This document shows, in pieces, positions 3,330 through 60,886 of a stretch of 64,000 nucleotides of DNA. Position numbers and translations under genes: made by a program. Location: contig JBHGNT010000004.1 of assembly GCA_043228905.1 (NCBI GenBank), positions 4,154,001 through 4,218,000 of the forward strand. Reading direction: 5' to 3'. The stretch is from Azolla caroliniana (taxonomy: Eukaryota > Plantae > Polypodiophyta). How positions within the stretch are numbered: the first letter of the stretch is position 1; each line of letters begins with the position of its first letter. Under the pieces are notes generated by a model. It did no database searches. It had not been told where the DNA came from and saw nothing but the letters and a program-made list of their open reading frames with translations.

Positions 3330-4490
3330 GTGATAACCGACTATTTGAGCAACGTTTTGAACATCAACAAATATGATGTTCTGAAAAAACATACCTTGTC
3401 TTGCATCTATCACAATTATAGATGTCTTCCTACTACATTTGGAGAATTAATTGAAGTGATGAAGTTAGTTTGTGTGATTTCATTCAATATAATCCACATT
3501 CTAGAGCATCCGATTGCCTTTAGTCTATCTTAGTTCGAGCTTCACAATCTACAGCTTTGATTGGAGAAAATGAGCAATCATGGATCCTAGAAAAACACAC
3601 ATTTGACTTGTTCTGAACTCAAGTTCATTGTATCATTGAATGTCAACTATCTTTGTACAAAGGTTGTGCAAAGAGGAACAAAAAGACATAATGTTTGGAT
3701 ATGTGGTGGTAACAATGCTATTCCCCCACTCCACATAAGCCAAAACCTTACTTCCAATCAAGTATTAAGATTTTACAAATGTCTTCAATAAGGAGAAGGT
3801 CGGTAAGGTCGTGCAACATTGACCTTGGTTTTGCCCTATCATTCTTCAACCAGGGAACCAATTTATAACCTATCTCCATCAAAGCTCAATGCTTCTTCGA
3901 GAATATATTGATGAGAATTTGGCAAGTGGATTCATTTGGCATTCAAGTTCTCCTATTGGTGCACCAATCTTCTTTGTTCTGAAGAAAGATGGGCCACTTT
4001 GTTTGGTCATGGATTATCTAGGTTTAAACAAAGTCACGGTTCGAAACAAGTAGGCTTTACTTCTGATTTTAAGTCTTCTGTAGCATCTTTGTAGAGCCAA
4101 ATGCTTCACAAAGCTAGATCTTCAGGGTGTTTATAATCTTGTTTGGATTCGTCCAAGCAATGAGTGGAAGAACGTGTTTTGTACTCCCTATGGAAATTTA
4201 GCATAAAGTTATTCCTTTCGGTTTCACAATTTTGGAATATTCACTATTTTCTATTTGAATGACATTATGATATTTTTAAAACTTAAGAGGAGCATGATGT
4301 GCATGCTCGATAGGTTCTATGATGATTGCCAGAATATGTATGCCAAACTTGAGAAGTGTAGTTTTGATCACAATCAAGTGGAATTCTTGGGGTATATAGA
4401 CTCACCAGAAGGTATCTCTATAGGTATCTCTATACTAGATTGGCAAACACCATGATCCATGTGTGATGTTAAATGCTTCTTGGAATCCAA
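3330..4490 (+). mobile_element. Degraded Ty3/gypsy pol (protease-RT) remnant, Tf2/Tcn1-chromovirus-like
   Basis: Broken translations: ISFNIIH.LEHPIA..LS*FELHN...DWRK (post-protease), PIYNLSP...[100 protein letters not shown]...ILDWQTP. Confidence 0.85.
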
Positions 4491-23235: not shown

Positions 23236-25098
23236 ATGGTACTAATGGTTCACAATGGATACGTGGTAAAAAGGCCTCATGTGTAGAGCATGAACATTTC
23301 TTGGGATCACCAACTTGGAATGGTAAAAATATGATTGATGTAGCACAAGTGGGTTGGGCCATCAAGTAGTTCCTTGTTCAAAGTATTTGGTAGTAACCCA
23401 ATAGAGAAATGAGATGATTGTGAAAAGAGAATTTCCCATTGAATTTGTGAATATTTTGGGTTATCATCAAGTGTCTTGTAATATGAAGTTTGAGATTGTT
23501 GACATAACATGTCTACATCACCCACAACATAAATTGTATATAGGTAAAATCAAATGCAATGCATCAAACCCATGCATGTGACTCAAACTGAGAAAATAGT
23601 GACAAAAATGTAGTGAGTGAAACGTATCTGCTTAATCTTGAACCTTTTACTAATCAATCTCACATCAAATGTGTTGGCTAATCCCTTCATGTTATGAGTG
23701 GAATGAATTGTCATTTTACTTGGAGAATGCTTAAAGAGAAACCTCAATTGATTCAATTGTGATTAGACATAAAGAAGTGTATTGAGATACTACATATAAA
23801 TAAATAAATGTGAGTAGGAAGGGGCAAAGCATAAGGTGTAACTTGTTTGAAGTAAAGGTTTGAGCCATACAAAGATCGTATATACCATACCAATTGTATC
23901 TTGCATTTTTTACCCATGCTTGCAATTGATCTAATGTTCTAATGGATGTACCTCAATTTTTACTATTCTTATATTATATTTGAATGTTCACGATGCCATA
24001 AGCTTTCATGTGATTTTTTATGTACACATTTTGTTTCTAGTGTCAAAATCACCACATATGGTTAAAGCCTAAAGGTTGTATACCCATTACAAAGATGCCA
24101 TTATACTCTTTAGAAAACATAATAATGCATTCAAAATTTATAGATTTATGAGTTAGAAGAACATAAACTATATACCTTATGAGACATTATTTATATACAT
24201 AACCTTAAGTGGTATACATAAATTGGTCCTTCAGTTCAATGACTATGTCGTACTTTACATTTAGTAGTTATGGATAAAGATGATTCATACTTTTTCCAAT
24301 ACCAATTCTTTCTTTCAATCTCTAACTGATTCCCAATATTAGCTTATGTATTTGGCAAAAGGAAGACTTGTCTTCTACGCCCTTACAACAATATCTACCA
24401 CACAAGATGAAGGATTAATTACGAACATACTCCTATTAAGAAGCTGAAGTAAGACCAATTCTAGAGAAGTGCATGACTTGGGTAGCTCATGGTTGAAAAC
24501 AAATCTAGGTATATATTACTCATATTGTTCTCTAAGTATAAAAAAAGATGGTGATGTCCACAATGAGTACATTGGCCTATCCCCAATTCAACATTAAAGC
24601 CAAGGCTCTGTATTGGGCTCGTATATTCCTCATATTATTCTCTATGTATCAAAGAAGATGGCAATGTCCTCAACTAGCCTATCCCCTTTCAACAATAAGG
24701 CCCGGGCTCCGCATTGGGCCCAAATGCGAGGACATGATGGAGAAGGTAATGGAAATGGGCGGCAAAGCAACAAGTTGTTCCGAGTTCTTGTCTAATAAAA
24801 CAAATGTGTGTGTGTGTGTATGTTGGCATGATGGGCAGCCAACTTATTTGTGTGCATTGAGTGTCCAAACAAGAACACTTTTGTGATACATATAGATTTG
24901 CCCAAGAGATATATGTCAAAAAAAAAAAGGAGTCACGGGTGAGCTACCCAGTGAGAGAGAGAGAGAGAGAGACAAAGAAAGAGATCAAGAGGTAACTAAA
25001 TGTTAGCAACTTCTAGTCTCTTGCAGAGTAAGGAGAGAAGGAGAGACAGAGACAGAGGAATATATAATAATTCTGGTAAATTGTAATAATAGCCCATA

Positions 25099-28000
25099 AT
25101 GGCTTCTTCCACTCACATGGTGCACCTTCTTATGATCATGGCCTACATGTATTCCACCATTACCCTATCATCCTTGGTATGGTGTGGCGGCCCGAGCCCG
25201 CAAGCATCCGGCATTGTCCGAGAGAATGATGATGATGATGACACTAGTCTTGGTACCAACAACATCCCCGCGCTCTTCCTCTTCGGAGACTCGATCGCCG
25301 ACACCGGTAACAACAACTGGCTTTTCACACTCGCCCGCGCCGACTTCTACCCTTACGGCAAGAACTTTGTCGACCGCGTCCCCACCGGACGCTTCTGCGA
25401 TGGCCTCCTTGCGGTCGATTATCTCGGTAAATACAAAAAAGAAGAAGATAAGCCATCGTGTCTCATGGGGTCGTGCATCGTTCCTTCCGTCCAATCAGTT
25501 CCCCTCCCCCCGATGAATTTGTTACAACTTTATTACAATTACAATTTTGTGTTTTAACAATTGAGCTAGACTAGGCACATTAGCTATTGTTGTTACTAGG
25601 GGGCTACTTGGAAGGCAAAAGTAGGGGTTAATTAGGGCTACAATCCCCTTTAGGGGTTAATTAACGCGAGTATAGACCCGTTTGTTGTTAGTAAAGGTTA
25701 ACTAAGGCTAGAGTAGCACATTAGCTACGTTTCATTATTAAACAAGGGCCTATTAGGGATATGGTAGATGAATTAGCTACCTTTCGTCGATAAACAAGGG
25801 CCCTCTAGGGATATAGTAGATGAATTAGCTACCTTTCGTCGTTAAACAAAGGCCTATTAGAGAGGTAATGGACTAGAGTGCCCATGAAAAACTTCCTTTC
25901 CAACCTAGCAAAATGTGTGTGGCTCGGTTTATGTGCATGCAAATTTCATGAACATCTAGTTTTATGTGGAGATATGTTAAAAAACAATTGCCGGAAGATT
26001 TTAGAATGTTTGTTTTCCGTATACACTATAAATATAGCATTGGGTTCTCAGAGATATTCTAATAGATGCATGGTTATCATTTCCCATGCAGCTATCTTCT
26101 TAGGGCTCCCTTTTGTGCCCCCTTACCTTTATTGTGGAGACAACATTTTACATGGAGTATGCTTTGCGTCGGCTGGTTCGGGAATTCTAGATACTACTGG
26201 AGCATTTTATGTAAGACCCCAAGAGTAAACATAAGAAGGAAACAAAATATTAGCCTTGTTTTCCATTTACATGTATGATGTGTGAAATATTAATTGTATA
26301 AGTTCATTGAACATGGATTCATCTCAAGATGGTTCAAGTGAGGAATATAGTTTAGCCATATTTTGTTAAACATGAAATGTTTCTCGATTTCCCTAATAGT
26401 GCCTTTATTGGAATTGCTGCCTAGGGACAACGCATACCATTATCGAAGCAAATTGACAATTTTAAAGACGTGAAGCAAAGACTTGTCACCAAGATTGGGC
26501 AAGAGCAAGCTTCCCTCCTAATTTCGAAGTCCCTTCATCTAATTGTCACTGGAAGCAATGATTTCTTTAGTTACTATGACGCAAGCTCCATTTTATCTCC
26601 TCACGATGTTGGATTTCCACCCACATTCCAAACGAACTTGTTGAGTCAATTCGTGTCCCAATTACAGGTATTGACCATTCAAATATACCTGTCAAATTTG
26701 CACAACAATTTAACCCAAGGATTTCTCTAGTTCAATTAAGTCGTTTTGTAAACACAATTTCTTCATGTTTCATGTCACATTTATTGTTCTATTAAGGCTT
26801 TATTATCATCAATGTACCTTATTCTTTTCCAGTGGAGTTCAAAACTCATATTTTCTAACCATATGACGTGATCATGGATGTTTAATGTCTCATGTGTAGA
26901 ACTTATATAAATTGGGAGCAAGAAAGATGTTGGTGGTATCTGTGCCACCTTTGGGGTGTGTGCCATCAATGCTATATAAGTCACACGGTCAATGCGCTAA
27001 TCCCCTCAACAATGCCATCCAATCCTACAATGTTGCCCTTCTCAATGCAATCACATCTCTTCAAGCAAGCAATTTCTCAGATGCCCACATTTTATATGCC
27101 AATGCTTATGATCTCGCTGTCAAGATCCTTAGCAATCCAATGTCCTTTGGTATGTATTACAAGTACTCATGTGTCTCTTCATACATGCCTACATGCACAC
27201 TTACATATAAACATGTGCATGCATATAAATCCTTGCACATCATCAACCAACTACTCTATAAGAATATCACAATTGCATTGAGTTAGAATCATACATTTCA
27301 ACATCTTGTATTAAATGAGCAAATTGTCAAGAGGAAAGTACGAAACCACAAGGGTTTCTCTTTACTCTCGTCATCTTAGTTCCCCATCCTAATAACATGC
27401 ACACTTACATATAAACATGTGCATGCATATAAATCCTTGCACATCATTAACCAACTACTTTATAAGAATATCACAATTGCATTGCGTTAGAATCATACAT
27501 TTCAACATCATGTATTAAATGAGCAAATTGTCGAGAGGAAAGTACGAAACCACAAGGGTTTCTCTTTACCCTTGTCATCTTAGTTCCCCATCCTTATAAG
27601 TTAAAAAAGAGAGTATAAACACAAGATGTCCATATTTCCGAAGGAAACAAAGACTTTGTGAATTTGGATCTTTATAAGCTTTCGAGAGAAATGTGGACAA
27701 AGGCAGGTCTTCACCTCTTTTGGGGAGAGAATAAAGTGGAGTTATGCTCCACCAAGGTGGCATTTTCCGCCCTCCATCACGTGCATGCATATAAATCCTT
27801 GCACATCATCTACCAACTACTTTATAAGAATATCACAATTGCATTGCGTTAGAATCATATATTTCAACATCCTATATGAATTGAGCAAATTGTCAAGAGG
27901 AAAGTATGAAACCACAAAGGTTTCTCTTTACTCCCGCTGTCTTGGTTCCCCATGCTAATAAGTTAAAAAAAAAGAGTATAAACACAAGGTGTCCATATTT

Positions 28001-28612: not shown

Positions 28613-31481
28613 ACCTTGTCCTCTCCTACACCATCAATCTACCTCACTTGTATTTTAAACGTTTTGTGCATCCAATGACACTCAAGGATTGTTGCAACTC
28701 AATAAAAAGGATCTATTATTAAACTCATTCATGTATGTATATTGGCAAGTACTCATAAAGTAACATTTATGGCTTTCATAAAACTACACAATAATTATGC
28801 ATGAGCATATTTTAAGTTGGATTAACTCTTGAATCGTTGATAGTTGTCTAATGACTGAAAAATAACATGCGTAGCTCATGTGAAACTACATGTTGCAACA
28901 ATGGTAGGCATAACCAAGTCCATTTGATTCTTCGACCTGCAATATTGCTTACGGACTTAACAACAATTTTATGGACAAAAATGTAAATTATTTAACCAAT
29001 TCAATTTGATACTTAAATCCCTGAAATTTGCTCAGTGAATCACAACAATTCAATGTAGTGCATTGTAAATGGCAATAATACCACCTTCACTAGTGTTTTG
29101 GATAGAATGTTAATTTCAATGTTGTAAAAGACTTTATAGTGCTCCTTAATGTTGTGGAAAACTTGGAAGTTGGAAATGCCAATGATGTATACAATCTGCA
29201 TAGCCAAACCCGTTGTTCCATACCATTCCCTATTACCTCTTTGGGTAATGAAATCATAGCTAAAGTAAAACATCTCATGAAATGTGTTTATTTGGTGTTC
29301 AACCAACGGAACTTGGGAATTCTTATTCTTGTATATCAATAGTAAGTGTTTTTCATTTCAATTTGATTATTAAGCATTTGAGTGTTGTGCGAGTTATTAT
29401 GTTGATTGTCCATGTCTTTGTGCCCGCAAGATGTGGTCAACACATGTTAAAATTGTTGAATGGTTGTGCTAATGTAGTTTATCATATTGATGATGATCGC
29501 CCAAATCATATTAGGATAAGCAAAAAAGCAATGTTATAATATAATTGCATATTGGATTTGTGCCTAGACATCAATTGTTCACACACATGTTTAAATAATA
29601 ACTTTATTAACATTATCTTTTTAATGCAATGGTGTTGTTTTAACATTATCTTTTTAATGCAATAGTGTTGTTCGTCGATGCTGCAGATAATGGATGGTAA
29701 AGTGAAGTGGAATTATCAACCACCACGGCGGCTGTTCCCTCCAAGTGTACCTAACATCTACATGGGTGCTGCCATGAGGAGTGAATGGAGGACATCTATG
29801 CTGAATTCTGCTTGTATGAGGCTCATGTGGAGAATATGCGTTCAAGTAATGCTATACACATCGAATGATGTGGTGCTTTGGAGTTGTTTTTTTTTGTTGT
29901 TTCATCTACACATATTGTTTTCCTTCGACATGCAAGATGTCCTGTAAGATATGAGTTGTAAATTATCCTTTGTACATTGCTTAACTAATGGAAGTAGTTT
30001 TTTTTTTGGAAAAAAAAAAACTCTTCCTATTGGAAAGTGCAATAGCGTTGTTTTCACCATGAGCTATTTATACTTGACATTTTCAGTCCATTGTTTTGAC
30101 GTTGTGAATCTATAAGCAATAACTTTGTGAACGAGAGCAATCATTGGAAGGAGGGTATAGAGTGACATTTATCAAACAATGGATAAATGGTTTTTATTGA
30201 AATTTGATCCATGTCCACTACCTTTGATTCTTGAATTTTAGAATCTTATTGCCTTTTAATCTAATGAACGAGACACAATATTCCGATGTATCTTCTTGGT
30301 TATGATAGACCTTTTCGGTGAGGATAATTGCATTTGATAATAATAAACAATTTTATTTGAGGATACCATCCTATTGTAAGAGAATATGTCTATGCATCTC
30401 GAGGTGGCTTACATTATATTTACATATTCTCATATGCCTTGTGGATCCCTTGATAGAGAGATATTCCAAAAGTGATCGACATGACTTTAAACTCAAAAAA
30501 GCCACTTGATGAGGTACATGTAAATAGGTATATATACTTATATGAATTGTAGCAAACATCCTTCTCTGTTGGGATGTGGCGAAGTCAAGATTTCATGTTT
30601 TTGGTGTTAATAGGTAAGAACCCTTATAAATAAAGACTAGAATGATGTCTTCGCTTTGTCATTAGTAATTATTACACACTCAATTTTATAGAATATCAAT
30701 TCTGCGATGATTAGCATTGCATTTTAAATGGAAAATTTAAATTGTGGAAAATGTGTTGACGTCAATTGTTTTTGTGTGTATCAATGTGCATTGTCTTGCA
30801 AATATGCATATATGTTCTCTAAACATGGGTAGCATATTTCAAGTTGTTATAGGCGTGTAATAATTTAATGAAAGTATGAAAAAAAAACACATGTATGCCT
30901 ATTTTGCATTTTTTTGACATGATAATTTTTCTCAAGCTATATGTACCCACATTCACACACTTTTTTTTTTTTGCATTTTACAATTAGTGTGAATACATTC
31001 TAAGTCATTCATTTTGGAGACATGTTCTAAATTTATTGTGTGCTTAATATTATTATGTCAAACTAACATTTGATTGTATATAAGCATGTCAATGGCTATT
31101 CATATGTTTAATTAAGAATGCCAATGCATTAACTTGGTATGATTACATATAAGCATGTAACAATTAGTGGATGATTGCTTATGTCTTAAGTGTGTAAAAG
31201 ATGTAATGGATTGTTGGTATGTAATGGGCATTAGGATATTAGCATTATCATTAATATAGCATTCTAGTTCAAATTTTGGTTAGGATAAATTAACCTTCTA
31301 TCGAGGTTGTAACTTATAATTACAATGGCTGATTTGAATGACAAAATGATAAGAATATCAAATGCAAACAATGTGGTTTGAGAATGGCAACATTTTCACT
31401 ATCTTTTTGTAATTATACGAATTACACTTACATTAATTGTGGTATATTAATTACAAAAATTATGGTTGAGTTGGATGACAG

Positions 31482-33545
31482 GATCAATGACAAGATTAGT
31501 AAATGCAAATCACATGGAAATGGTGGGGATTAATTATGGTATGGTAGCAGACAACTTGCCACCACCAAATAAAGCAAGGGACTTGATGGTAGGGATGGGT
31601 GTCACAAAGGCCAAGATCTACAATGTGAACACAACTGTCCTCAAGGATTTCATGGGTAAAGGCATATCTTTCATTGTGGGGGTTGGCAATGAAGAATTAC
31701 ATGGGTTGGCCAATGATGTTGAAGTGGCAATGATATGGGTTAAACAAAACATAGAACCTTGGGCACCAATGATTAAGGCCATTGCAGTTGGAAATGAGGT
31801 GCTTACAACCGGGGATGCTCGCCTTATTGCTGACTTGATGCCTGCCATAATGAATGTTCATGCAGCACTTGGGCCACTAGCAACACATATAGTTGTATCA
31901 ACACCACATGCAATGTCAGTTCTTGCAACACCATCTTTCCCACCTTCAACTGCAACATTTGAACCTAGTATAAGAGATGTTGTCATGCGACCACTTGCAT
32001 TGTACTTAGCACAAACAGGGGCACCATTCATGATTAATGCATACCCCTTCTTTGCCTATAGGGCACAACCCGTCTCTATCCCATTGGCGTATGTTCTCTT
32101 TCAACCCAATCAAGGGCTTCCTGACCCTGTCACTGGCCATCTTTATTATAACATGCTTGACGCTCAGGTATTCACTCCATATTATGTCATGCCGGTAGAA
32201 ACTTATGGAAATAGCCCCATTTTTACATTAATAGTAAATGATGCACATCATAGTGAATAACCTTAAAAGAGATTCTAGAGAGGGATTTAAAATAAGTCTC
32301 ACATGTTTACTCATCCATAGATATTCCAAATATCTAAATTAGAATATATAAACATAATGGTGTAGTGGTAAAGTTGTTTACAATGTAGCATTCATGCTAT
32401 GTTGGATTATAGGGAAAACAAACATGTACTACGAAGATCATGCATACTAGCATTTGCCCATATTCATAATTTTGGTATGAGATCTTGCACCTAAAGAGTC
32501 TCCTTTGGAAATAGGATAGCATTACCCTTTAAAAGCGGTAAAATGAAAGGATCACTTATTTCTAGTGAAAATGCTCAACTATTTTTATGCAACTATATCC
32601 CATTAGTTTTAATTGAAAAGCTTGACTATTTTTAGAATTCATACTATTATATTCTAATAACAAGAGCTCGACTATTTTTCATACTTGTACAAAAACTTTT
32701 GTTCTCTAAACAATTTAGAAAGGCAAGTCGCAAAATTGATGAGGTCCTCGTTACATATCCTATACTAGTATGCACGTGTGTGAACAACAAGACATACACA
32801 CATTATGGGTTCCCAATGCCCAAATGCTCATATTGTATGTGCATTGCAAGAGATTGTGTGAATACATGTATCATCTCTTAGGTCATTTGATAGTAAGCAT
32901 GTATTTTTCAATGAGAGGGTTCCATATGATTGTGTTTGTAACACTTTCTTACTAATCAAACATTATGCATTTCACCATCGCTTCTAAGTTTACAAATTGT
33001 CTTTCAACGATTGTTTTTTTACAAACATGATCATTTGGCCCATTTTTGCTCAGGTGGATGCAGTATACTCCGCAATCAAGGCATGCTCAGGTGTCACAAA
33101 TGTCCCTGTAATTGTTACTGAAACTGGGTGGCCATCATTTGGTGATCCTAATGAGCCTGGTGCTCAACAACTAAATGCACAAACCTATAATTCGAATCTC
33201 ATAAAGCACTTGGTGTCGCGTTTAGGTACTCCACTGCAACCTCATCTCCCCCTTGAGGTGTATATATTTGCATTATTCAATGAGAACTCCAAGCCGGGCC
33301 CTTCATCAGAACGGAATTATGGCCTCTTTAAACCGGATGGAAGTAGGGCTTATGACCTTGGGTTAGTTCAAGATGACATACATTCTTCTCCTTCTACTCA
33401 AAATCCACATCCATCATCTCCTAGTAACATTCACCAAATACATCCGAATAACTTGCATAGCTCTTCTAGTGTCACCAAAACCTCAAATTTATTCATTGGA
33501 AGTACCACCATTGTTTTTATAACTTTATTATCATTGCCTCGATAA
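31482..33545 (+). CDS. Glucan endo-1,3-beta-glucosidase (GH17), probably GPI-anchored, no X8 domain
   Basis: Exons ~31482-32167 and 33054-33545. Motifs VGINYGMVADNLPPP, AVGNEVL (acid/base Glu), APFMINAYPFFAY, VTETGWPS (nucleophile), YIFALFNEN.KPGP.SERNYGLF, then a S/P/H-rich linker and hydrophobic C-terminus. The start codon and first exon are unresolved. Confidence 0.9.
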
Positions 33546-34871: not shown

Positions 34872-35258
34872 TGAAAAAGATTATGTGCGGAAGCAATAGA
34901 AAACGAACACAGAAAACACGTAGGTTTAATGGAAAGCTTTACAGTACGCGGGAGAGACAGAGAAAGAGCAGAACAACATAATTATATTACAAAACAATAA
35001 TAGTTCTTTGTACATGAAACGTGCTCAACAACACTATTTATACAAGTCCTGAGAAGACTGACAGAAGTACCGCGTACTTCAATGCTCACTTGAGCGTCTG
35101 GCACTGACTATGAGACTATTAACTCCCTAGTAGTCTAGCTGCTACTAGGCTTCCGGTTACTGATGGATCCAGCTAACCGGCTCCCCAGCTCACCGGCTCG
35201 CCGATCCGACTCAGGCTTGTTCAACCGATCCGGATCTGGTTGAGCTTGTCGCTCAACT
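34872..35258 (-). repeat. Copia 3' LTR
   Basis: Near-identical to 40273-40673. Confidence 0.92.
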
Positions 35259-35437
35259 CTCCCCCTCAAGCTCAACTTGAGGTCGGATCGTAGTGTCAGT
35301 CTCCATGGCAGCCGGTCCTTCCACCTGGCTCCTTTTGGCATCACTCCGCCTTGCTCGCGCTCCTTGTCCAGTCCGGTCTCGTTTGCCACGACCCTTCTGT
35401 TTCTGCGCATCTCGACCTCCTCGGTCACCTTGTCTGC

Positions 35438-38400
35438 TCAATAGGTCCAAATCAGCTCCCTTGCTGTTGTGACTTTGGCGCTTGTCGACCCACCGATTCC
35501 TTCTTGTTGGCGTCGACTTTTGCTGCCATCTCGTCCTTTGGCCTTGAATTGATCCGATTCTTCCAAATCCGTTTGTCGAACCGAATCGGTTGTCTTCAAT
35601 TCGTTCCAGCTCTTGTCCGAATCGGTTGCTCCCGATTCGTCTTCCGGTTCCAGGCCCTTCACCACATCGGACCATGTCCGGGTCTTGGCCTTCTTCTTCC
35701 GGTCGGCTCTGTCCTTCTTGACTCTACCGCCGCTGCCACTTGTTCCGACTTGTTCGGATGTGTAAACTTCCTTTGCCAACTCGACTCCTTTCTTCTTCTT
35801 GTCTCCCCCTTTGTCGGTTCTTCCCTCATCGGCGCAAGCGCAATATGCAGTTTCTTTGCCTTTGCCCATTCCAGTGTCTTTGCCTGTTCTCCCCCTCAAG
35901 TGTGGCACGTCGAGATGCTGAACACCAAGCATTTCGGTGAAGTGTTGCAAGTTGTCCGATCCGAGAGGTTTGGTGAAGATGTCGGCAACTTGTCGATCCG
36001 TATGAACATACGGAAGTTCGACTTCACCGCTCAGGACACGCTCACGCACGAAGTGGTAGTGCACTTCGATGTGCTTTGTGCGAGCATGGAATACAAGGTT
36101 CTTGGCGAGCTGCATGCTGCTTATGTTGTCGCAATAGATCAGGATCGGGGTCGGCACCTCGATCTGCAGGTCTTGCAGCAGTCGCCGGAGCCAAATGGCT
36201 TCACAGGTGGCAACGGTAGCGCCCCGGTATTCAGCCTCAATGCTCGACAGAGCCACTGTTGGCTGCTTTTTGCTGCTCCACGCAACAGCCGCGCTACCAA
36301 GGGAAAACATATAGCCGGAAGTTGAACGGCGATCTGATGCATCGTCGGCCCAGTCGGCATCCGTGTAATCGACTAGCTCTTTGGTCATACCTCGCCGGTA
36401 TAACAGTCCTCGGTCCTTCGTGCTGCTCACATACCGCAGTATTCGGTGCGCGCACTGAAGATGCTCTACGGTCAGCTTCTGCATGAATTGGCTAATCACA
36501 CCGACTGGATAGCTGATGTCGGGTCGGGTGATGGTCAAATATATAAGGCTTCCGACAATTTGTCGGAACCATTTCTCATCGCAGGCCGGTCCGGAGTTGG
36601 GACAGAGCTTCTGGTTCCGGTCCAGGGTTGTAGAAATAGGTCGGCATTCTGTCATGCCGAACTTGTACAACATATTCAACACATAGTGTCTCTGTGAGAG
36701 CAATATGTCGTCGAGGGTTCAAATCACCTCGATCCCAAGGAAGTAGTGAAGGTCCCCTAGGTCCTTCATCTCAAATGCATTCGACAGATGGGACTTAACT
36801 CGGCTGATTTCATCGAGTCCGGGTCCGATGATGACTAGATCATCAACATACAACAAGATGCATATCGGACCGTCCGAACCTTGCCGAATGAACAACGAAG
36901 AGTCAGACTTGGAGGCCAAAAACCCCATCTTACGCAACCGATGCGTGATCTTCGCATTCCAAGCTCGGGGGGCTTGCTTTAGGCCATAAAGTGACTTCTT
37001 CAGCCGACATACCATCAACTTGTTCATCCCTAACTGGAAACCAGGGGATTGGGTCATAAAGACCTCTTCTTCAAGATCGCCTTGAAGAAATGCATTCTTC
37101 ACGTCCATTTGGTGAAGATGCCACCCCCTTGCCGCAGCAACCGCTAGCACCACACGAACCATCACCATCTTCGCTACCGGAGCGAAGGTCTCGTCGTAGT
37201 CGATTCCGTGGGTCTGCGCATATCCCTTTGCTAGTAACCGGGCCTTGTACCGGTTAACTGAACCGTCGGCGTTGTACTTTACCTTGTACACCCACTTGCA
37301 TCCGATCGGTTTACAGTTACGAGGAGGGTCAACCAGGTTCCATGTATCGTTGGCATCAAGTGCCCGCATCTCTTCCTCCATAGCGGCACGCTAATTTGTG
37401 TCCCTTGCCGCTTCTACGTAGGTCTCTGGCTCACGCACTTCCACCACCTTGGTCATGTACGCATAGTGATGCACCATGTACTCATTGTATCCATACCCGG
37501 TGTAAACCACCGTTACCCGGTTTGAGGCCCTTCTTGGCCGGCTCGGTCTTTGTTGCCGAAGATCCACCTTCTTTCATACCGGAGTCAGATCCGCTCCGAT
37601 CCTACTCATTATTACTCATTTCATAATCTGGCATCTTCTTCTTCCCCTTTTCTTTGCGCGTGAACCGTCTCCTTGGTTCCTTGTGTGGGGAGAGCACGAC
37701 AGAGTCTTCACTACTCGCCGGTTCCTCATCCGATTGGTCATCTCGACTCAGCCACTCATTCGGTCCACTTAACCGAAATGAGATCGGACTCTCTTCTAGA
37801 GTGTCGACGTCCTCATCTTCTAACTGGACCGGTTCAGGCTCACTAGCCTCATCCTCTGGTATCGGGTCGGGGTCGGAAGTCGGAATCGGTAAGGCATACC
37901 ATGATGCCATCTCATCAAACTCAACATCCCGGCTAACCCGGACCTGCTTCGTCCAGGGGTTGTAACATTTATACCCCTTTTGCTCATGCGAGTAACCGAT
38001 TAGTATGCATTTCTCCGACTTTGCATCCAACTTCCTCCGCTTTTCATCTGGTACATGCACATATGCAATGCTACCGAATATCCGAAGGTGTCGCAAATTC
38101 GTCTTGCGCCCGAAAAATAGCTCATGCGCGAACACCTTGTCACCGATCCGGTTTTGGATGTAGATGGCCGTCTGGACCGCCTCCGCCCAGTAGAAATGGG
38201 GCATGCTCTTCTCCTCCAGCATCGCCCTTGCCGCGTCGAAAAGCAACCGATTCTTCCTCTCGGCTACACCATTATGTTCCGGTGTGTATCTACAGCTGAA
38301 CTCTCGCCGAATTCCTATTTGCTGCAGATAACTGTTGAATTGGCCGGAAAAATATTCTTTTCCGCCGTCCGACCACATGCACTTGATCTTCCTCTCCGAT

Positions 38401-40166
38401 TCCCTCTCCACCATGCTTTGGAGGTTCCGGAAACAGTCAAAGACTTCGCTCTTCCACTCAATGAGGTAGATCCATGTGTGCCAGTTGTAGTCGTCGATGA
38501 AGGAGACGAAATATCGACTCCAGCCAAGACTCACGTTCTATGTCGGTCCCCATACATCCGAATGAATAAGGTCGAGCTTGTTATGGCTACGATTTCGTTC
38601 GGTGGGGAATGGAAGCCGGTGTTGCTTCCCGAGTTGGCAGGCTTCACATACTTGGGCCTTCCGGCCACCGAACTTCGGCAAACCGAAAACAACTTGTTTC
38701 ATTTGCAAGTCTTGAAGCCTCCGATAATTGACGTGGCCGATCCGCTTGTGCCACAGGTCGATGTCCGATTCGACCTTCTGTCCTTTGGCGAACAAAGCGG
38801 TGCCAACGTCATTGGTGTTAAGGATGAACATCCTCCCGTCTCTGCGCCCTTGCGCAATGATTTGGCCCTCTTCCTGGATGAAGCACCCAAGGTGCGTAAA
38901 CTGTACCTGCATCCCATGGTCAACGATCTGACCGACTGACACCAGGTTCTTAGTGATAGTCGAAATGTGTAATACGTTCATCAACTTCCCCCTCTGTCCA
39001 ACGTGGCTCAAAGGGACTTCTCCGACATGCACGATTGGGTGAGGAGTGTCGTCTCCGATTTCGATAACTCTCGGTTGTTCCGGTTTCTCCAGGAAGGAGA
39101 ACCACTCTTTGTGGCTTGTCATGTGATTCGACGCACCAGAATCAACATACCATACTTCCTTTGATTTGGAAGTGGTCTTTTTCATTGAATTTGCCTCGTG
39201 CTTCATCACCAAGGCTGACCCCTTATCGGTCTTCCTGGTTCCGGATCCTTTCGATCATTGCGCGTAGTGCGAGCTTTGTCGGTTTTCCCGACCGGTTTTG
39301 CCGGATCCAGATCTGTCTGAATCGGCGCGCTTCTTCCAACACTCGCTTTCTCGGTGGCCCTTTTTACCACAATACCAGCATTCTGTGGCGGGTTTATCTT
39401 GTCGGCATCCGGTGCCGCCTTGACTCCCCCTGCTTGTGGAAGTCCCAGAACTGTTGTCGGCACGTTCTCTGTGCCTTCTTTCCTGCTCTTGTCGGCCGCC
39501 TCCAGTGCGTGCCGACCCACCTCATCCCCCACGCCCACGGGGCTTATCCGCCTCCGTGTACATCATCCGGTTGTCCGATTGAGTGGTCCTAGACCCACTC
39601 GCGTGGTTTTCTTCGACCATCAGCATCGATTGCAAGTCAAAGAAGGTCAGTGGTTTCTCCCGGGTGTAGATTGTTGTCCGGATTGGCCCTTGCCTTTGCG
39701 CTAGACCACCAAGGCATATTTGTACCATTTCGTCTTCGTCCACCATCACGTTGATGGACCCGAGTGCGTCGCAAATCTCCTTTATTTTGGTGTAGTCCAT
39801 AACCGACATATCTCTTTGTCGGATGTTGTTCAACTCTTGTTGGAGCTGCAACTTACGGGTTGTGGTACTTGCGGCGAAAATCTTACGCAGATTTTCCCAG
39901 GCCTCCTTTGGCGTCTTTGCATCCCTGATGTAGCCGAGCATCTGGTCGTGCACACAGGACGCGAGGCAGTATAATACTTGGCTCGCCCCTTGCTCCCATA
40001 CCGGGAAGTCCTTGTGTCCAGGCTCTGGTGCTACCTCATTCGTTCCTTCCACGAAACTCCAATACCCATGCCTCAGTAGGTACTGGTGCATTTTGTATGA
40101 CCAGGACGCATAGTTGCTCTGGTTGAGCTTCTCTATAGGAAGTGAACTTGCCATACCTCTGTCCAT
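35438..40166 (-). pseudogene. Copia gag-pol polyprotein, broken into several frames
   Basis: gag (KLNQSNYASW, zinc knuckle CWYCGKKGHRESEC), protease WYVDSGASNHM, GAG-pre-integrase/integrase (LWHKRIGH, CEAC, SDGGKEY, TPEHNGVAERKNR), RT (YKARLLAKGYAQ, QMDVKNAFL, LYVDDL), RNase H (YTDADWA, SSIEAEY, CDNISS, ADIFTK). Confidence 0.95.
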
Positions 40167-40272
40167 TTTATTTTATTTTTCGTCTATTGTTCTATTCTCA
40201 CAACTTGTAGGGTTTTTCTTGAGAAAGCAAATGTCAGTTGTAGAGGTCTTCAACCCTCACGCTCTGATACCA

Positions 40273-40673
40273 TGAAAAAGATTATGTGTGGAAGCAATAG
40301 AAAACAAACACAGAAAACACGCAAGTTTAATGGAAAGTTTTACATACGCGGGAGAGACAGAGAAAGAGCAGAACAACATAATTATATTACAAAACAATAA
40401 TAGTTCTCTGTACATGAAACATGCTCAACATCACTATTTATACAAGTCCTGAGAGGAATGACAGAAGTACCGCGTACTTCAATGCTCACTCGAGCATCTG
40501 GCACTGACTACGAGACTATTAACTTCCTAGTAGTCTAACTGCTACTAGGCTTCCGGTTACTGATGGATCCAGCTAACCGGCTCCCCAACTCACCGGCTCG
40601 CCAATCCGTCTCACCGATCCGGTTTCATCCTTCCGGATGCCGATCCGGATCCGGTTGAGCTTGCCGCTCAATA
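40273..40673 (-). repeat. Copia 5' LTR
   Basis: Adjacent to the PBS; near-identical to 34872-35258. Confidence 0.92.
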
Positions 40674-43524: not shown

Positions 43525-43701
43525 CACCGCTCCTCCCGACATTTCTCTTCCTGCCACATCTCAGAATTAGGGTTAGGGTTTCCTTCTCCATCTCAGAATT
43601 AGGGTTTTACTTCTCCATCTCAGAATCAGATTCCTTCTTTTTTTTTTGGGCTCTTTCTCCTCCTTCTTTGCGTGACTGTTTTTTCTAGCTTCCTTCCTTC
43701 C

Positions 43702-46700
43702 ATGGATCCTCCACTCACATACCCTTCTCTCACCCCTTCTGGACCTCAGCTTCCCACCACTCTCGATCCTCGATCTCTTCTACAGTACCCCGATCCTGTC
43801 TCGGTAGATGCCATAGCGGAAGATCTATCCAAAGCTCCTCTTCTCTCCCCTGTTGAAGCATCAGAGACCATCCTTGTAAACATTCCCGACGCCATAGCTC
43901 ATCTCATCGATAGAGACAACAGTCTCCTTCTCTCCACGGGCGATTTCTCTCTTGTTCGCCTAACCCAGGGTGGCAATGGGATCGCAGTCTTTGCCCGAGT
44001 GGGGAAAGACCTCCAATGGCCTCTAACGAAAGACCAATCTTCAGTTAAACTAGATCCTTTGCATTACTTTTTCTCTATATTAGTCCCACCTGAGGTTGAA
44101 GCGGCGTGCAGAACATCTTCTTCAGAGGAGGAATCTGGAAATAGGATATCAGGTAAGGTATCTAATTTAGAGGAATTCAGAAATGACTTATCGGAGGAGG
44201 TTCTGCACTATGGTATTACTTTCAGGCCTAGCTCTGATACCGCCTCTTTGGTCCTCTTGGACGACATGCTTATTCAATATAGCCATTTCAGCGCCCCACA
44301 AGTTACTCTGGGCAATGGTGAGATTTCTGTGGAAAGCAACGGAGAAGAAGGAGAGGAGAAAGGAAGAGAGAGAAAAGAGCAAGATTTAGGTGAAAAGCTA
44401 TCTTTAGGGTTTCGTGGGTACCCGTTGGAAGATGGGTCAGCCGAGTATTGGACATTGTTAGCTCCCAATGTTGAGGATTACAGCTCTGGTATAGCTAGGG
44501 CTATTGCTTCTGGTGCTGGCCATGTTATCAGGGGCATATTTTGGTGTAGTGATGCAACTGTTGCACAGCTAGAGAAAGGAAATCTCTATATGAAAGGAAG
44601 GGTGAAGGCCAAAGATTCTCCAACCCAAGTTAGCCCAGCCACAATGGAAAGAATGAAAAGGTTGGTTTATTTTGCTCATTGAAAAATTGCTTGCTGTTTT
44701 CAATTTAAAATGTCGATCAAATGAAAAAGAATTAACATTAATTAATATATAGAATTATGATGAGTGGTATTAAGTCTAAGGTTTTTAATTAACCCTCACA
44801 ATATGCTGTTTATATAATGAACTGTATTATTGTCATAATGTAACCATCAGAATACTGCTCATAGTAACCTGATTGTAAGGGTTGGTATAGAGCTCATAAT
44901 ACTGTTCATAATAATCCGATTATGAGTGTTGTTCGTCAGAAATAAAGTAGGGATAATTTGGTAATGAAAAAAATAGAAGTATGTGGAACATTAAAAATGT
45001 ATGGGGTATTCCTGTCAATTTGTGTTGAAGTTATATTTATTTTAATGTTTTCCCCTAAATAATGCTGGCATGAACTTGAGCGTGGTTTTTGAGCGGTTCA
45101 TTTCTGGTCATATGTGTAACAAATGGGTATTTTGGTATTTTCCCCTTGATAATATCAGCATAAAGTTGATTGAGAATGGTGTTTGATGGATTTGTTAACG
45201 GCACAACTGTATATGTTAGATCCTAAATGTGTTCATTGGAAAGAGCATAATTGTGGTGAAGAAGGCCACAATACTGACTAGAACCAATTGGTATGTTATT
45301 GTGGGTTGTGATTGTAGATGCCAATCACAGGAGTCCCCTTTGGCTGACCATAGGGACCACATTTTGGGGCAACAGTACTTCCTCTTGGGAAGATTGTGGT
45401 AGACCGATAACTGTTATACTCAGACTGCTAGCGGGGCTAGCACTGGGCAAAGATGGAAGGCACTTTATAACCACTTATGAAGCTAGCCTGTAATTATCGA
45501 TGAAACTTATTTAATTAATGATTAGGTGATCACATAATTAACAGTAAGGGACAACAGAGAGTAAGAGCTTCAACAATACGTTAGAAATGCTAACTTACTT
45601 ATATTCCTCTCCTCCTTGGGGATCGTTTTACATGGGTTTTATATAAACAAGGATGATGGAGAGGAGATAATGTGTTCATCACCCTATCTGTACTTCCATT
45701 CCATTACAGATTTGTTTCCCATAAAACTTTTGGTCACACAACATTACAGTTGTTCACCCCCTTGGCCACACAATATTACAGTTGTGTGTTCATACCCACC
45801 CCTAGGGACAGCTTGGAATGTTTCCCATGAAACTTTTGGTCATGACATTCCATCCTCCTGAAGGATTTGTCATTGTTGTCGATGACCAATTTTGGAAATG
45901 CTAACATATGTTATGACATTCCATCCTCCTGAAGGATTTGTCATTGTTGTCGATGACCAATTTTGGAAATGCTAACATATTTTACAAGTATTCTACACGT
46001 ATTCTAAGTATTTAACGTATTTAACGTACTTTTATCTATAAAATACGTATTCTAAGTATTTTTTTTAAAAAGTTAGAATACTTAGAATACGTATTGTACG
46101 CGTATTTTATGCTATGTATTTTACAACATTGGTTAGTGCCAAGCAAGAAATGAAGGTGCTCTAGAGTACCACTTATGTAATTAAATCACTAGATTAGTTC
46201 ACAGATGGCGGCTTTTCACTCAGGCAGTTGAGTCATAATTGCCGCTAAAAGTTATTTAATGAACGATTAACTAATCACTCATCAACACAAAAACACAGTG
46301 GAGGGGTAGGGCTTCAAGCAATCTATCAGAAATTCCAACTTAATTATATTCCTTTACTATTGTCAGAAAGTAAAGGATTACTATGGAGAATATAATCATA
46401 CAATTGAATTTTTTAACAGTTGTACAATTCACAATATTATGATGCCACGATTTTGAAACACAGTTATGATGGAAAATACCTTAATAAAATTGAATTTGTA
46501 ACTATGGCTTGACCCAAGCACTAATATCAATGTTAATAATTGGGTATAGTTCACACAACACTACAATTGTGATGGGAATAATAGCAGGATTCTATTGGAT
46601 TTTTTGCAATGTTTTGACCCAAAAAAAAATTCAATGTTATTAGTTGGTATATTCTGATAATACAACTATGGTTTTGAAAAAACAATGATTGTGAGTAGCA

Positions 46701-55578: not shown

Positions 55579-56380
55579 AAGAAAGAAAGAAATATTAATG
55601 TCTTCTAAGGCCAAAGTTTGGCCCATGAGACAATTGGTGTACAATAAAATAGGGTGTCTACCCAATCATCAAAAATAAAAATGAAAATAAAAATAGAACT
55701 TAAGCTAAAAGAGTTATAGTATTTGTACAAAACGTGTTATGGTGTAACATACTTGATAAGGAAATGACTTTGTACTAGGCCTCATATCCTTTCCATCCAA
55801 GCCTCATCGAAAAGAAGTGGGAGGTCAAAGGGTTTCGGTGTGGGTGTGACCTGTGGTCCCGATGTAGAAGGTATCCCAACCATGGCTTCCAAGCGGTGTA
55901 CCTCATGTTCCCTTTTTTTCTTAATTGTTTATGCACCACGTCGTGTTGCTTTAAAACCCAACATCCGAGGGCGTTTGGTTGTTCTTTGGTTTTTTGCTTC
56001 ATCAAGGAAGAGGCCGAGTGGTGCAGGTGTGTCCATATTCGTCGTTCCCCCTGTCCCTGAAATACTTCATTTGTTACATGTTGGTGATATTAGAAACGTT
56101 ATTGTCAACATTTTGTAGTATATTCTCTCTATGTTGTTTTCGCCTTAAGATATATCTGTCAAGATTTGAACTCTTGACATGACCATGTTATAATGGAGTG
56201 TTATTTGTTAACCACACATCTAGCATATAATCATGTATATACTTCCTCATTGTAGGTTTTAGCTAGCATCATGTGCATAATTCCTCCCTTGTATTATTTA
56301 CACTTGTCACATGTATGCGTACCTACTACCTACATGCTCTATTGTATCACATGCGTGCAATAGGTATGCATGCCACTTAG

Positions 56381-56388
56381 TATAAATA
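56381..56388 (+). promoter_or_regulatory. TATA box of the 5' LTR
   Basis: tataaata in mid-LTR; the 3' LTR copy reads gataaata. Confidence 0.6.
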
Positions 56389-56819
56389 GTTGAGTTCACC
56401 TTGAAGGAATTCAAGGTGAACAACGCCAGTCATGGACATATCAATCTAGTATTCCCATTTCGCCCATCCTCTCTCCTTGATCTTCATCTCTATCTTTATG
56501 CTCTTGTGTCATTCCCTATCTTAAGTTCCTCGCGTCGTTGCTCCGTCATAGCCTCATCATCCGTGCTCCGTCTTAATCCGCGCTTGGTGTGTCTGTGACA
56601 ATTTGTTCACCTTCCAACTAGAAGCATCACCCGTCTCTGTCATCGCCCTTGCTTCTAGAGTTACCATCATCAACATCGCTTCATTTCCTATCTTCCTCGC
56701 CATTTCTATCTCCTAGTTTCTTCTCATCTTTTTCATTGGCTTTATATTTCTCCTCATCATGGTCTCTATTTTTTAGTTTCTTTCCCGTTCCCGTTCCCGT
56801 TGGTGTTTGTGTTCCAGTT

Positions 56820-58335
56820 CTTGGTGAGGGACGCACAAGGCCACTCACTCCCGTTGGTGTTCGTGTTCCAGTTCCCAATGAGGGCCGCATGGTCGCTCAC
56901 GCCTATTCGTGTTTGAGTTCCCAGTGAGGTCGCACGGTCGCTCACTCCCATTCGTGTTCGAGTTCCCGGTGAGGGCCGCATGGTCGCTCACTCCCGTTCG
57001 TGTTCCAGTCTCCGGCGAGGACCGCACATGGTCGCGCACTCCAGTTCCACATCCCTGCGAGGACTGACATGGTCGCTCATGCCCATTGGGGTTCATGTTC
57101 CAGTTCTCGGTGAGGACCACACATGGTCGTTGACTCCCGTTCGTGTTCTAGTCTTCGGTGAGGACCCACATGGTCTCTCATTCCAGTTATTTTTCATGTT
57201 CCACATCCCGGCGATGACCGACATGGTTGCTCATGCCCATTACGGTTCATGTTCCAATTCTCGGTGAGGACCACACATGGTCGCTCACTTGGTCGTTGAC
57301 TCCCGTTCGTGTTCTAGTCTTCGGTGAGGACCCACATGGTCTCTCATTCCAGTTATTTTTCATGTTCCACATCCCGGCGATGACCGACATGGTCGCTCAT
57401 GCCCATTACGGTTCATGTTCCAATTCTCGGTGAGGACCACACATGGTCGCTCACTTGGTCGTTGACTCCCGTTCGTGTTCTAGTCTTCGGTGAGGACCCA
57501 CATGGTCTCTCATTCCAGTTATTTTTCATGTTCCACATCCCGGCGATGACCGACATGGTCGCTCATGCCCATTACGGTTCATGTTCCAATTCTCGGTGAG
57601 GACCACACATGGTCGCTCACTGTTACCCGGCCGACAAAGGATTAAAGACCAGAATGTGAAAGGGATGGTTATTCAGAATATATTTTAATTAAGTAAAGTA
57701 GATTATAATTATGTAGTGAACGGACGGACCGGAATCGGTATGCCGATCCGGATCCGGACCGGTTCCGAACAGGTGCCGGTTGGCACCGTTTTGTATGCAA
57801 CACCGGTGACCTATATAAAGGCCCGGTTACAATGTAAAACTTTGACGGAGAATTAATATAAGCTTCTTGTTTTATTTTCACGTATTGATTACCGTTCTGT
57901 ATTAATTGTTATATCTTACGCGTGTATTAAGTGAATGCCTTATTGCTAAGTAGCCAATTAAGTCGGATTAATCGTTGTGTCTTAAGTTATCTCGTCGTAA
58001 CACCCCTTTGGTGAAGTGTCTTCCGGAGACACCCTGTGTTAGGCCATTGTCCGGCCCTAAGGATTAACACTCACGCCCGTTGGTGTTCATGTTCCAGTTC
58101 TCGGTGAGGACCACGCATGGTCTCTCATGCCTGTTGGTGTTCGTGTTCTCTGTGAGGACCGCACATGGTCACTCACACCTGTTTGTATTCGTATTCCAGG
58201 TCCTGGCAAGGACCACACATGGTCACTCATGCCCCTTGGTGTTCATGCTCCCCGTGAGGACCGCACATGGTCGCTCACACCTATCAATATTTGTGTTCTA
58301 GTCCTAGGCAAGGATCACACATGGTCGCTCAAGCC
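56820..58335 (+). repeat. Tandem array of about 21 hairpin units (gtgag-gacca-caca-tggtc-g-ctcac consensus), 42-60 bp period, with a 166-bp higher-order repeat
   Basis: Units visible from ~56824 to ~57620 and ~58104 to ~58332. Identical ORF ends at 57267, 57433 and 57599 show the 166-bp period. Confidence 0.92.
57621..58069 (+). mobile_element. Solo LTR of an unrelated family inserted in the hairpin array
   Basis: tgtta...taaca termini; 5-bp TSD ctcac at 57616-57620 and 58070-58074; internal ctatataaa. Confidence 0.88.
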
Positions 58336-60886
58336 CATTGGTGTTGAATACCTTGTCTTGTGGAAGGGTTACTCCTTGTCTAGGATTTACAAAATACTTT
58401 GGAGGTGATCTAAGATTTTCATCAACAATATCCCCTTAAGCCGACAAACTATTTGGGAAGGCATCGTTGGAGGGGGGATAATGTCAAGATTTGAACTCTT
58501 GACATGACCATGTTATAATGGAGTGTCATTTGTTAACCACGCATCTAATATACAATCATGTATATACTTCCTCATTGTAGGTTTTAGCTAGCATCATGTG
58601 CATAATTTCTCCCTTGTATTATTTACACTTGTCACATGTATGCGTACCTATTGCCTACATGCTCTATTGTATCACATGCGTGCAATAGGTATGCATGCCA
58701 CTTAGGATAAATAGTTGAGTTCACCTTGAAGGAATTCAAGGTGAACAACGCCAGTCATGGACATATCAATCTAGTATTCCCATTTCGCCCATCCTCTCTC
58801 CTTGATCTTCATCTCTATCTTTATGCTCTTGTGACATTCCCTGTCTTAAGTTCCTCGCGTCATCACTCCATCATAGCCTCATCATCCGTGCTCCGTCTTA
58901 ATCCGTGCTTGGTGTGTCCGTGAGAATATCTACCTAATTTCTTTATATCTAGTCTCTAGAGTATCTAATAGTTTGGGGAGGGTGGGAGAGGTACCAAGTA
59001 TGTCTTGGTATTTTGCCCTTATCTCGGCGTAAGTTGGACACTTGCATGTAAAGTGGTACTCATCTTCTATCTCTATGTGACATAATCTACATATCCTTTC
59101 CTCTCTAGGGACTCCATTAGTATGACCATTCTCAATCTCAAGCAGGTGAGATGATATTCTAAGTTGTCCAATGGCAACCCTTAGTGCATTTGGTAAGAAT
59201 GCATCTAGATATTTTGGTCGTGTAATAAAACCTAACTTATAGAAGTGCATGAAGTGTTTCTTATAGTACAACATTTTAGATGGCAGTGGCTCTAATGGGG
59301 TGGTCCATTTATACCGAGTGTAAATTTGTCATATTTCTTGGCATATTACTTTATTACGGTCCTCACGAGATATTAAAGTGTTATCAATCTCGTGGTTGTA
59401 CCTAAGGGGAGGTAGATTGTTAATGTCTATACCATTTGTAAGAAGCCAACTCACCATCATGCCATACCATGAGCTAGTATAACCAAACTCGTAGAGAGAT
59501 TGAGATGCCTCAAAAGCTTGATGAGATATCCTATCATGTGGTTGGCTATGTATCCTATGAATAAAGACAACACGTTGAAAAAGTGCTTCTACTAACATCG
59601 AGGGTAAGGTGAACTCAACTCTAATAATGTCATGTCATGTGGTATCGTCGATTTGCTTCGGAGTTGGCGTGATAACATCATCTCCAATGGTCTCTCTAAT
59701 TGCATCCACATGAAAGATGGTAACCCTGGAGCCCAAACGATTGATGCATACATGAGGGAGGGGGTCACTAATGAGTCAAAGAGACACCTCTTAGTCCGTG
59801 GCTCTTGAAAGTATGCTTGGTGGCATTGCCTCTCTAAGAGTGAGAGGGATGCATGTCCTCTTGTAAGTCTATCCTTCCCTACCCATGTCATAGAAAAATT
59901 ACCTGAGCGGGCACTGAAAGTGACTCCAAGATATACATATGATCCAACTACCTCAACTTGGCTATGGGAGATGGTTAGGTGACACTTGGTTCTAACTTGA
60001 GCCGATGTGTGGAAGATAAGGACTTTAGTTTTCCCTAGGTTCACTACCAAATCTCGTTGTGTGCAAAAGTAATCTAAGGCATTAAGTTGCCTTTGTAGGT
60101 CATGTTCAGACTCTGAGAGCAAAACTATGTCGTCTGCATAGAGCAAGATACAAACCTGTGTACCCCCAAGGACTACTCCGTTGCCTCCCTTACGAGCAAT
60201 AAAGTCCGTGATCTCATCAATGTAGATCCCAAAAAGAGTCGATGATAGGGGACAACCTTGTTTTACACCGATAGTGCTAGTGAAGTAGTGGGATAGGCCA
60301 CCTAGGCATCGTACGTGCCCGGAGACTTGCTCATATAGTGCGTAGATGGCCCAAATCACGTCATCTGGTATCTTCGAGCTTTTGAGCCTATCAAACAACC
60401 GCTCTCTAGGGACACTGCCCAAAGGCTTTGCAGGAGTCCACAGAACAACAATATAATATCTTCGTGCGAGCCATTAACATCTAAGCGTGAAGATACGATC
60501 AACAGTAGAGAAGGCGCGTCGAAAGCCAACCGATTCAGGTGGTCGAAGATTTTAAGGTCTCCATATAATCGCGAAGCTCAACAACTTCCATTGCTGCACC
60601 ATATAATTTAGCGAGCATACGACCTATCATAATTGTAAATGGTCCTATATGTATGTAACTGGGTCCATGGGGTCTTCTCTGTTATGTATGGGGGCCACTC
60701 TGTTGAGAGTCCATTGTGGTCAGAGTCCATAGTGTTGAGAGTCCATATGGTGTTCATAGTCCATAGAGAGAGAGAGAATAGAGTGAAGTGTGTGTGCGAG
60801 AGGAGAGGGTAACGTTTGTCTCTGCTGGTTTTTGGTTTTGTGGTGTTTTTCTTCTGTTGTCTGCGAGACACAGAAGAGTGAGACAG

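Follow-up and report, generated by a model that had tools for sequence, protein, structure and literature searches.

The LTR retrotransposon Tf1 of Schizosaccharomyces pombe and its relatives in the Tf1/sushi group prime reverse transcription with the first ~11 nt of their own RNA. TRIM and LARD elements are non-autonomous LTR elements that have lost coding sequence and retain long terminal repeats (LTRs), a primer-binding site (PBS), a polypurine tract (PPT) and a target-site duplication (TSD). Tf1 requires a three-duplex "pretzel" (bioRxiv 2022.12.06.519325), about half of its cDNA keeps a single-stranded PBS tail that is reported to drive tandem, integrase-independent insertion (PMC11042837), and the self-primer of Tf2 is controlled by the choice of transcription start site (TSS) (PMC5341516). 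Among plant elements, Neumann 2019 (PMC6317226) gives a prediction of self-priming for 12% overall, for 83% of 1500 Tcn1 elements, which come from moss and club-moss, and for the TAR copia lineage. The PCR survey of Novikova 2010 (PMC2864245) recorded Tcn1 in mosses and Selaginella and none among clones of 26 ferns and horsetails, and describes SM-Tcn1 as being without a self-primer. In these sources self-priming in plants is predicted from complementarity alone.

Our window, meaning the whole stretch of 64,000 nucleotides that was analysed, contains a non-coding LTR element. Our main reading, to which we assign a probability of about 0.8, is that this element is copied in trans by a Tf1/sushi-type chromovirus, is primed by nt 1–11 of its own RNA and carries a hairpin in U3 that masks a second copy of the primer. 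The self-priming mechanism is already known from Tf1 and predicted for plant Tcn1. Beyond it, the features that our literature search did not return are the probable fern host, the conserved and recurrent, likely primer-masking hairpin and the TSD-flanked insertions attributed to snap-back; older Tf1 papers may describe such U3 structures or aberrant cDNA ends, and the per-species lineage tables of PMC8282616 may list Tcn1 elements from ferns.

Anatomy of the element and its predicted primer

The element occupies positions 56157–58925 of the plus strand and is bounded by the 5-bp TSD ATATC (56152–56156 and 58926–58930). Its 444-bp 5′ LTR (56157–56600, TG...CA) differs from the equally long 3′ LTR (58482–58925) by 18 substitutions and no indels, corresponding to a JC distance of 0.042. 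The 3′ LTR has a mutated TATA box, holds a second hairpin and primer copy at 58719–58748 and ends in TGAGA, one change from the TGACA of other copies. The internal region (56781–58345) is composed of non-coding sequence with short tandem repeats, in which the longest stop-to-stop frame reaches 116 aa and which is interrupted by a nested solo LTR, 449 bp long and from an unrelated family (57621–58069, no strand assigned; TGTTA...TAACA, TSD CTCAC); minus this insertion, the element measures about 2.0–2.5 kb. A relic of the last 44 pol codons (58384–58515, plus strand) was recovered by tblastn, and the PPT (58469–58478, plus strand) is identical to that of the coding partner described below. This architecture, with zero coding capacity and 84 junction copies genome-wide, bears out the first-pass annotation, which had described a non-autonomous LTR element. 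The family resembles TRIM and LARD elements in combining LTRs, PBS, PPT and TSD without coding sequence, and differs from them in having a self-complementary PBS instead of a tRNA-type one. An Rfam scan of the element gave no match, ARAGORN found no tRNA in the 64-kb window, and comparison with a protein atlas returned only generic RT/RNase H clusters. Separately, an 8-bp hairpin shared with the coding family opens the LTR (56157–56179; TGTCAAGA / TCTTGACA), and the inner arm of this hairpin is similar to an LTR end in inverted orientation.

The 5′ LTR is not followed by the TGG of a tRNA-type PBS. Instead, the PBS TTGTTCACCTT (56603–56613, plus strand) starts 2 nt past the LTR end at 56600 and is the exact reverse complement of AAGGTGAACAA at 56413–56423 within the LTR. 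The latter tract is the predicted self-primer, nt 1–11 of the predicted RNA, and its placement is consistent with an RNA 5′ end, because it begins at a C|A initiator step and 32 nt after the TATA box TATAAATA (56381–56388, plus strand), a spacing that is equal in other families. All positions previously given for the TATA box, hairpin arms, primer tract and PBS were exact. No match between the LTR and the region behind it is longer than these 11 nt; the rough chance probability of such a match is 444 × 6 / 4^11, or about 6e-4, with the TATA+32 position left uncounted. In the minimum-free-energy fold of the predicted RNA from 56413, the primer:PBS duplex forms with a mean pair probability of 0.94 (z −3.9; 0 of 200 shuffles as good), and the value is 0.64–0.96 in eight other copies. 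Stacked inside this duplex is a predicted 15-bp, G-U-rich duplex between R (56429–56443) and the end of U5 (56585–56599), both on the plus strand (p 0.003 versus shuffles), which recurs with altered sequence in seven of seven copies (p 0.003–0.06). The third duplex of the "pretzel", taken here as pairing between the region downstream of the PBS and the LTR, was unsupported in the window element (p 0.80) and reached about 0.03 in only two of seven copies. The window element is like Tf1 and Tf2 in that 11 nt of its LTR can pair with a PBS immediately behind the LTR and in the flanking R:U5 duplex, and unlike them in being non-autonomous, in its plant host and possibly in the third duplex. The Tf1 and Tf2 accounts consulted mention neither a U3 arm over the primer nor snap-back insertions with inverted U3. 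The predicted RNA also has a 9-bp stem just 3′ of the PBS (56618–56658), and the coding family has a counterpart in a similar place, a 7-bp stem that differs in sequence.

We also compared primer and PBS across a set of 82 related contigs. All 11 relatives in which both LTR ends were resolved have an 8–13-nt complement of the LTR located 0–3 nt past the LTR and no TGG; this is the unbiased count, because the wider scan of relatives selects for complementarity, and matches of that scan at contig ends or in low-complexity sequence were disregarded as artefacts. About 15 different primer/PBS sequences occur among the relatives, most with a TATA-like box 22–38 nt upstream. Within the host genome the two tracts are essentially invariant and the mismatched rows are single-sided changes, so that genome contributes no covariation. 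The compensatory changes between PBS and R start that the first-pass annotation had proposed to look for are therefore seen across the relatives, in about 15 unrelated sequences, but not among host-genome copies. Since the PBS is not of tRNA type and is complementary to the predicted RNA start, the element likely self-primes as Tf1 does. The complementarity, the junctions genome-wide, the folding and the relatives with different primers all support the Tf1-type geometry claimed for it, and we consider it very probable that reverse transcription is primed by the element's own RNA 5′ end at the predicted TSS. If so, this non-autonomous family displays the minimal cis set needed. In five relatives (L161, L163, L169, L182 and L205) the LTR complement is just 8 nt long, lies about 90 nt away from the LTR end and has no TATA box before it, possibly reflecting another promoter or primer arrangement. 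One metagenome contig (L168:800–1050) has a long inverted repeat upstream of its LTR.

A probable coding partner of Tf1/sushi type

The pattern of LTR end, 2 nt and PBS occurs 473 times in the genome, and its reversed control does not occur. Based on the sequence following the PBS, 84 junctions belong to the non-coding family of the window element, 151 to a coding family (family A), at least 72 to a group B and 26 are rearranged, with 140 left without family assignment. Several LTR families with differing U3, R and U5 retain the TATA box, primer, PBS and hairpin. We fetched 20 long stretches and located the second LTR in 12 of these. Family-A copies with both LTRs are 4.6–5.3 kb long with LTR identities of 97–100%, and they code for gag and an overlapping PR-RT-RH-IN-chromodomain frame. 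Family A and the window element have the LTR start, PPT, PBS, primer and hairpin in common; identity is 81% in U3 and 66% over the final 44 pol codons, and R and U5 differ. The window element is likely copied in trans by this co-resident chromovirus.

The first-pass annotation had postulated a Tcn1/Tf2-like autonomous partner with remnants at 441–1035 and 3330–4490. A genome search for autonomous elements with this LTR did recover such a partner in family A, with an RT of Tf1/sushi type, but not in the window: the remnants are genuine gypsy sequence (gag at 786–1067, 37%; pol at 3748–4482, 40%), and we rejected them as the partner because of this low identity and because no matching LTR adjoins them. 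Another candidate, L031, was also rejected: the two LTRs of this copy of the family enclose an uninterrupted copia frame of 1361 aa (L031:2031–6116), which we interpret as a nested insertion.

The partner RT-RH shares 67% identity with a Cunninghamella (Mucoromycota) protein, 59% with a Ustilago protein, 59–62% with the two top-scoring amphibian proteins and 42–53% with angiosperm elements. In a FastTree phylogeny of 53 sequences rooted on the angiosperm elements, it groups with fungal, vertebrate and unnamed elements and is separated from the angiosperm chromoviruses, and the group of fungal, vertebrate and own sequences has a support of 0.94. Based on these sequence comparisons, the placement supports membership of the Tf1/sushi group, with which family A also shares a chromodomain integrase. 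The partner chromodomain (PF00385, E 6e-16) is of Group I, as in Tcn1, and its Y, W and Y residues are presumably those of the aromatic cage. The 5-bp TSD and overlapping gag and pol frames of Tcn1 are present as well. No named Tcn1 is among the 120 listed RT matches, and the nearest named tree branches are weakly supported. Compared with plant Tcn1, family A is alike in its predicted self-priming, TSD, overlapping frames, aromatic-cage chromodomain and grouping with non-plant Tf1/sushi elements. It differs in length, the 5.29-kb partner lying just below the 5.47–9.44 kb listed for plant Tcn1 (PMC6317226), and in host, since plant Tcn1 comes from mosses and club-mosses and the host genes of family A are closest to those of ferns. 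The TAR copia lineage (Houba, Osr-1) is likewise predicted to self-prime in plants (PMC6317226); membership of it is ruled out by the Ty3/gypsy domain order PR-RT-RH-IN-CHD of the partner. A Tf1/sushi-type lineage in a fern bears on the question of a fungus–plant transfer of Tcn1-like elements and, if the assignment is true, extends Tf1/sushi elements into ferns.

Junction copies flanked by TSDs are found on chromosome-scale contigs, and the window copy is adjacent to host genes, which argues that these are elements of the host and not contaminants. The host gene exons in the window (19436–20194, 25093–25557, 31451–33545 and 43603–44682) encode a receptor kinase and a GDSL lipase (both assigned by eye), a GH17 glucanase and a senescence-domain protein. 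The senescence-domain exon matches Adiantum at 51–53% and Ceratopteris at 48% over 98% of the query, with seed plants at 46% or below, and the glucanase exon matches Adiantum at 53–55% in a search of longer proteins only. For both exons ferns are the best named matches by identity and no bryophyte is near the top; on this basis we regard the host as a fern and reject a moss, which had been considered. The window also contains a disrupted minus-strand Ty1/copia element (34945–40613) between 269-bp repeats of 95% identity, and LINE-like remnants at 1408–2943 and 59592–60473, the second with an RVT_1 match and the first resembling its C-terminal part by eye.

The U3 hairpin over the predicted primer

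The hairpin pairs a U3 arm (56394–56405, plus strand) upstream of the predicted TSS with a right arm (56410–56421, plus strand) that covers primer nt 1–9. The arms are exact reverse complements around a GGAA loop, as the first reading had it. Across 68 distinct TATA-primer segments, 67 keep 10–12 of the 12 pairs, and the mean of 10.9 compares with 5.3 in shuffled sequence. The top pair (pair 12) is A-T in 37 of the 68, T-A in 24 and C-G in 5. One group has a fixed G-A mismatch (22/68) and another a G-T (G-U) pair at position 11 (6/68). Beyond the host genome, U3 masks the primer significantly in four of 18 relatives, one with the same primer (L133) and three with unrelated primers (L178, L185 and L212); stems in L135 and L213 were seen by eye and fall short of significance, and the remaining relatives have none. 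The 14 non-significant relatives include the whole AGT-starting group, so the hairpin is not needed for self-priming.

In predicted stability the hairpin equals or beats the primer:PBS duplex (−18.6 versus −14.1 kcal/mol as RNA and −12.7 versus −12.2 as DNA), whereas the G-A variant, at −13.2 and −9.1 kcal/mol, is weaker than that duplex. When the U3-R-U5-PBS strand of the window element is folded as DNA, the probability that the PBS snaps back onto the primer is 0.00 with the U3 arm and 0.55 with the arm shuffled. Five of eight other copies behave alike, and in L072, L079 and L081 arm shuffling hardly mattered. Since the predicted RNA starts downstream of the arm, the copy of the primer that does the priming would be free of it; and because the hairpin is bound to form both at the 3′ end of the RNA and in plus-strand DNA, its likely role is to mask the second copy of the primer and not only to act on read-through RNA. 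On the strength of these folding models, we lean slightly towards selection of the hairpin for masking the second copy. It suggests how elements with two primer copies per RNA may avoid mispairing, and it represents a short, testable RNA/DNA switch.

Inverted-U3 insertions and the proposed mechanism

The 26 rearranged junctions (about 5% of 473), all with GA or GG after the PBS, continue without exception as the reverse complement of U3. Among these fold-backs, 21 are on chromosome-scale contigs and five on small contigs that duplicate four of the 21. Read in the opposite sense, they run from TG through U3 and primer into 2 nt and inverted U5 and then jump, usually into sense gag or pol. The far end was located for eight of the 21, and for 13 none was found in about 6.5 kb. 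An exact 5-bp TSD flanks five of the located insertions (L088, L112, L126, L128 and L131), L122 has one mismatch, and L113 and L124 have no TSD. L131 is a member of the window element's non-coding family; L126 is a 3′ LTR with a PBS tail and inverted U3; and L088 has no internal region and consists solely of U3-R-U5-PBS-inverted U3, 616 bp in all, with arms 98.8% alike. As the TSDs flank the aberrant ends, the fold-backs would have formed before integration. Of the truncated joints, 10 of 19 fall at R nt 12–24 against 2.4 expected (P 3e-5), the joint of L121 having been set by eye at nt 16 where the alignment ran to nt 3 through a look-alike. Clustering behind nt 11 fits strong-stop DNA that ends at nt 12, and a nick at the edge of the snap-back stem fits too.

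Fold-backs are rarer in the families with a perfect hairpin (family A and the window family, 4/239 or 1.7%) than in the others (17/229 or 7.4%; Fisher p 0.003), a difference that we treat as a hint because the families are few, related and unequal in age, 140 junctions are unassigned and the fold-backs were put into families by eye. Group B, in which 26 of 30 checked arms have the G-A mismatch, contributes 12 fold-backs (p 0.04 at the least favourable denominator), and one family with an RNA-perfect hairpin contributes four of the 21.

Based on these observations, we propose the following route. Pol II would initiate at 56413, 32 nt past the TATA box, and RNA nt 1–11 would lie on the PBS, stacked on the R:U5 duplex in the conserved predicted fold. 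By analogy with Tf1, and consistent with joints at nt 12–24, the partner RNase H would cleave past nt 11 and RT would extend the 11-mer. With the 5′ primer copy consumed, nt 1–11 of the daughter LTR would be taken from the 3′ R, and every RNA and plus-strand DNA would thus have a second primer copy behind U3, over which the U3 arm is predicted to fold. Where masking fails, the single-stranded 3′ tail of the PBS could anneal to this second copy and copy U3 backwards, and integrase would insert the snap-back product. The tailed cDNA described for Tf1 is the substrate that such a snap-back requires. Judging from the junction sequences, the inverted copies probably arise in this way. We more tentatively suggest that self-priming has an inherent flaw, in that PBS-tail snap-back gives integrase-competent inverted-U3 elements, that several lineages may independently have evolved a suppressing U3 "primer cap", and that traces of the flaw, at about 5% of junctions, and of its remedy, with about fourfold fewer fold-backs in perfect-hairpin families, may be preserved in the genome.

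Priming by a host tRNA or tRNA fragment, with an incidental complement in the LTR, is very improbable. Although our comparison spans just 71 tRNA genes of 13 isotypes, within that set the best 3′-end match to the PBS is 2 nt and the best internal match, of 8 nt, is located downstream of the PBS; together with the missing TGG and the wholesale replacement of the PBS across relatives, with the LTR tract changing along, this speaks against tRNA priming. A weightier alternative to snap-back, still unlikely, is that the inverted-U3 copies are assembly artefacts or arose after integration, by inversion or replication template switching between the 11-bp inverted repeats. L130 does resemble an inversion with a deletion, 15 of the 21 are without a demonstrated TSD, and none of the contigs listed from four independent runs bridges a junction, contigs being prone to drop rare variants. 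Against this, the five exact TSDs surround aberrant ends in unique flanks, L088 combines near-identical arms with the lack of an internal region, and the PBS is where a simple inversion would be expected to rejoin, whereas most joints are deep in gag or pol.

The hairpin itself could accompany self-priming as a promoter element or a neutral by-product, template switching having copied the primer into U3 and repaired the palindrome. Its lack of significance in most relatives and the second, 8-bp hairpin at the LTR start suit this account, as does the 5′ LTR of L002, where both arms have matching changes over an unchanged PBS, a state that template switching alone could yield (L015, L021 and L027 have a left-arm change only). 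Such repair would, however, erase the fixed G-A and G-T positions; loops differ across families while the stem is retained, and similar stems stand over unrelated primers in distant lineages, all of which makes neutrality doubtful. A shade less probable is the role given to the hairpin by the first-pass annotation, the control of read-through or upstream-started RNA such that the primer is accessible only in transcripts with the correct start. With 30 nt of U3 added to the RNA, primer:PBS pairing falls from 0.94 to 0.16 in the window element and to 0.015 or less in five other copies; the RNA stability of the hairpin and the position-11 G-U pair also suit an RNA role, and TSS choice governs the Tf2 self-primer (PMC5341516). 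In three of the nine copies, one of them the family-A copy that was the most intact of those tested, pairing nevertheless stays at 0.77–0.89, so the predicted effect holds for six copies and fails for three. Judging from Tf1, an upstream-started RNA would be without a free primer 5′ end anyway, and this role would not account for why fold-back rate varies with hairpin strength. Read-through control and masking of the second primer copy are not mutually exclusive.

If snap-back is indeed the source, the fold-backs are genomic traces of the self-priming reaction itself, marked by a PBS 3′ end that was free over no more than 11 nt and by joints from nt 12. Inverted-U3 junctions, for which a single pattern suffices to search any assembly, would then allow self-priming to be diagnosed in any genome from sequence alone. 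In three of the fold-backs (L114, L115 and L121) the joints lie in one short stretch of gag (AWFAP codons) that resembles the PBS and is a possible cryptic annealing site.
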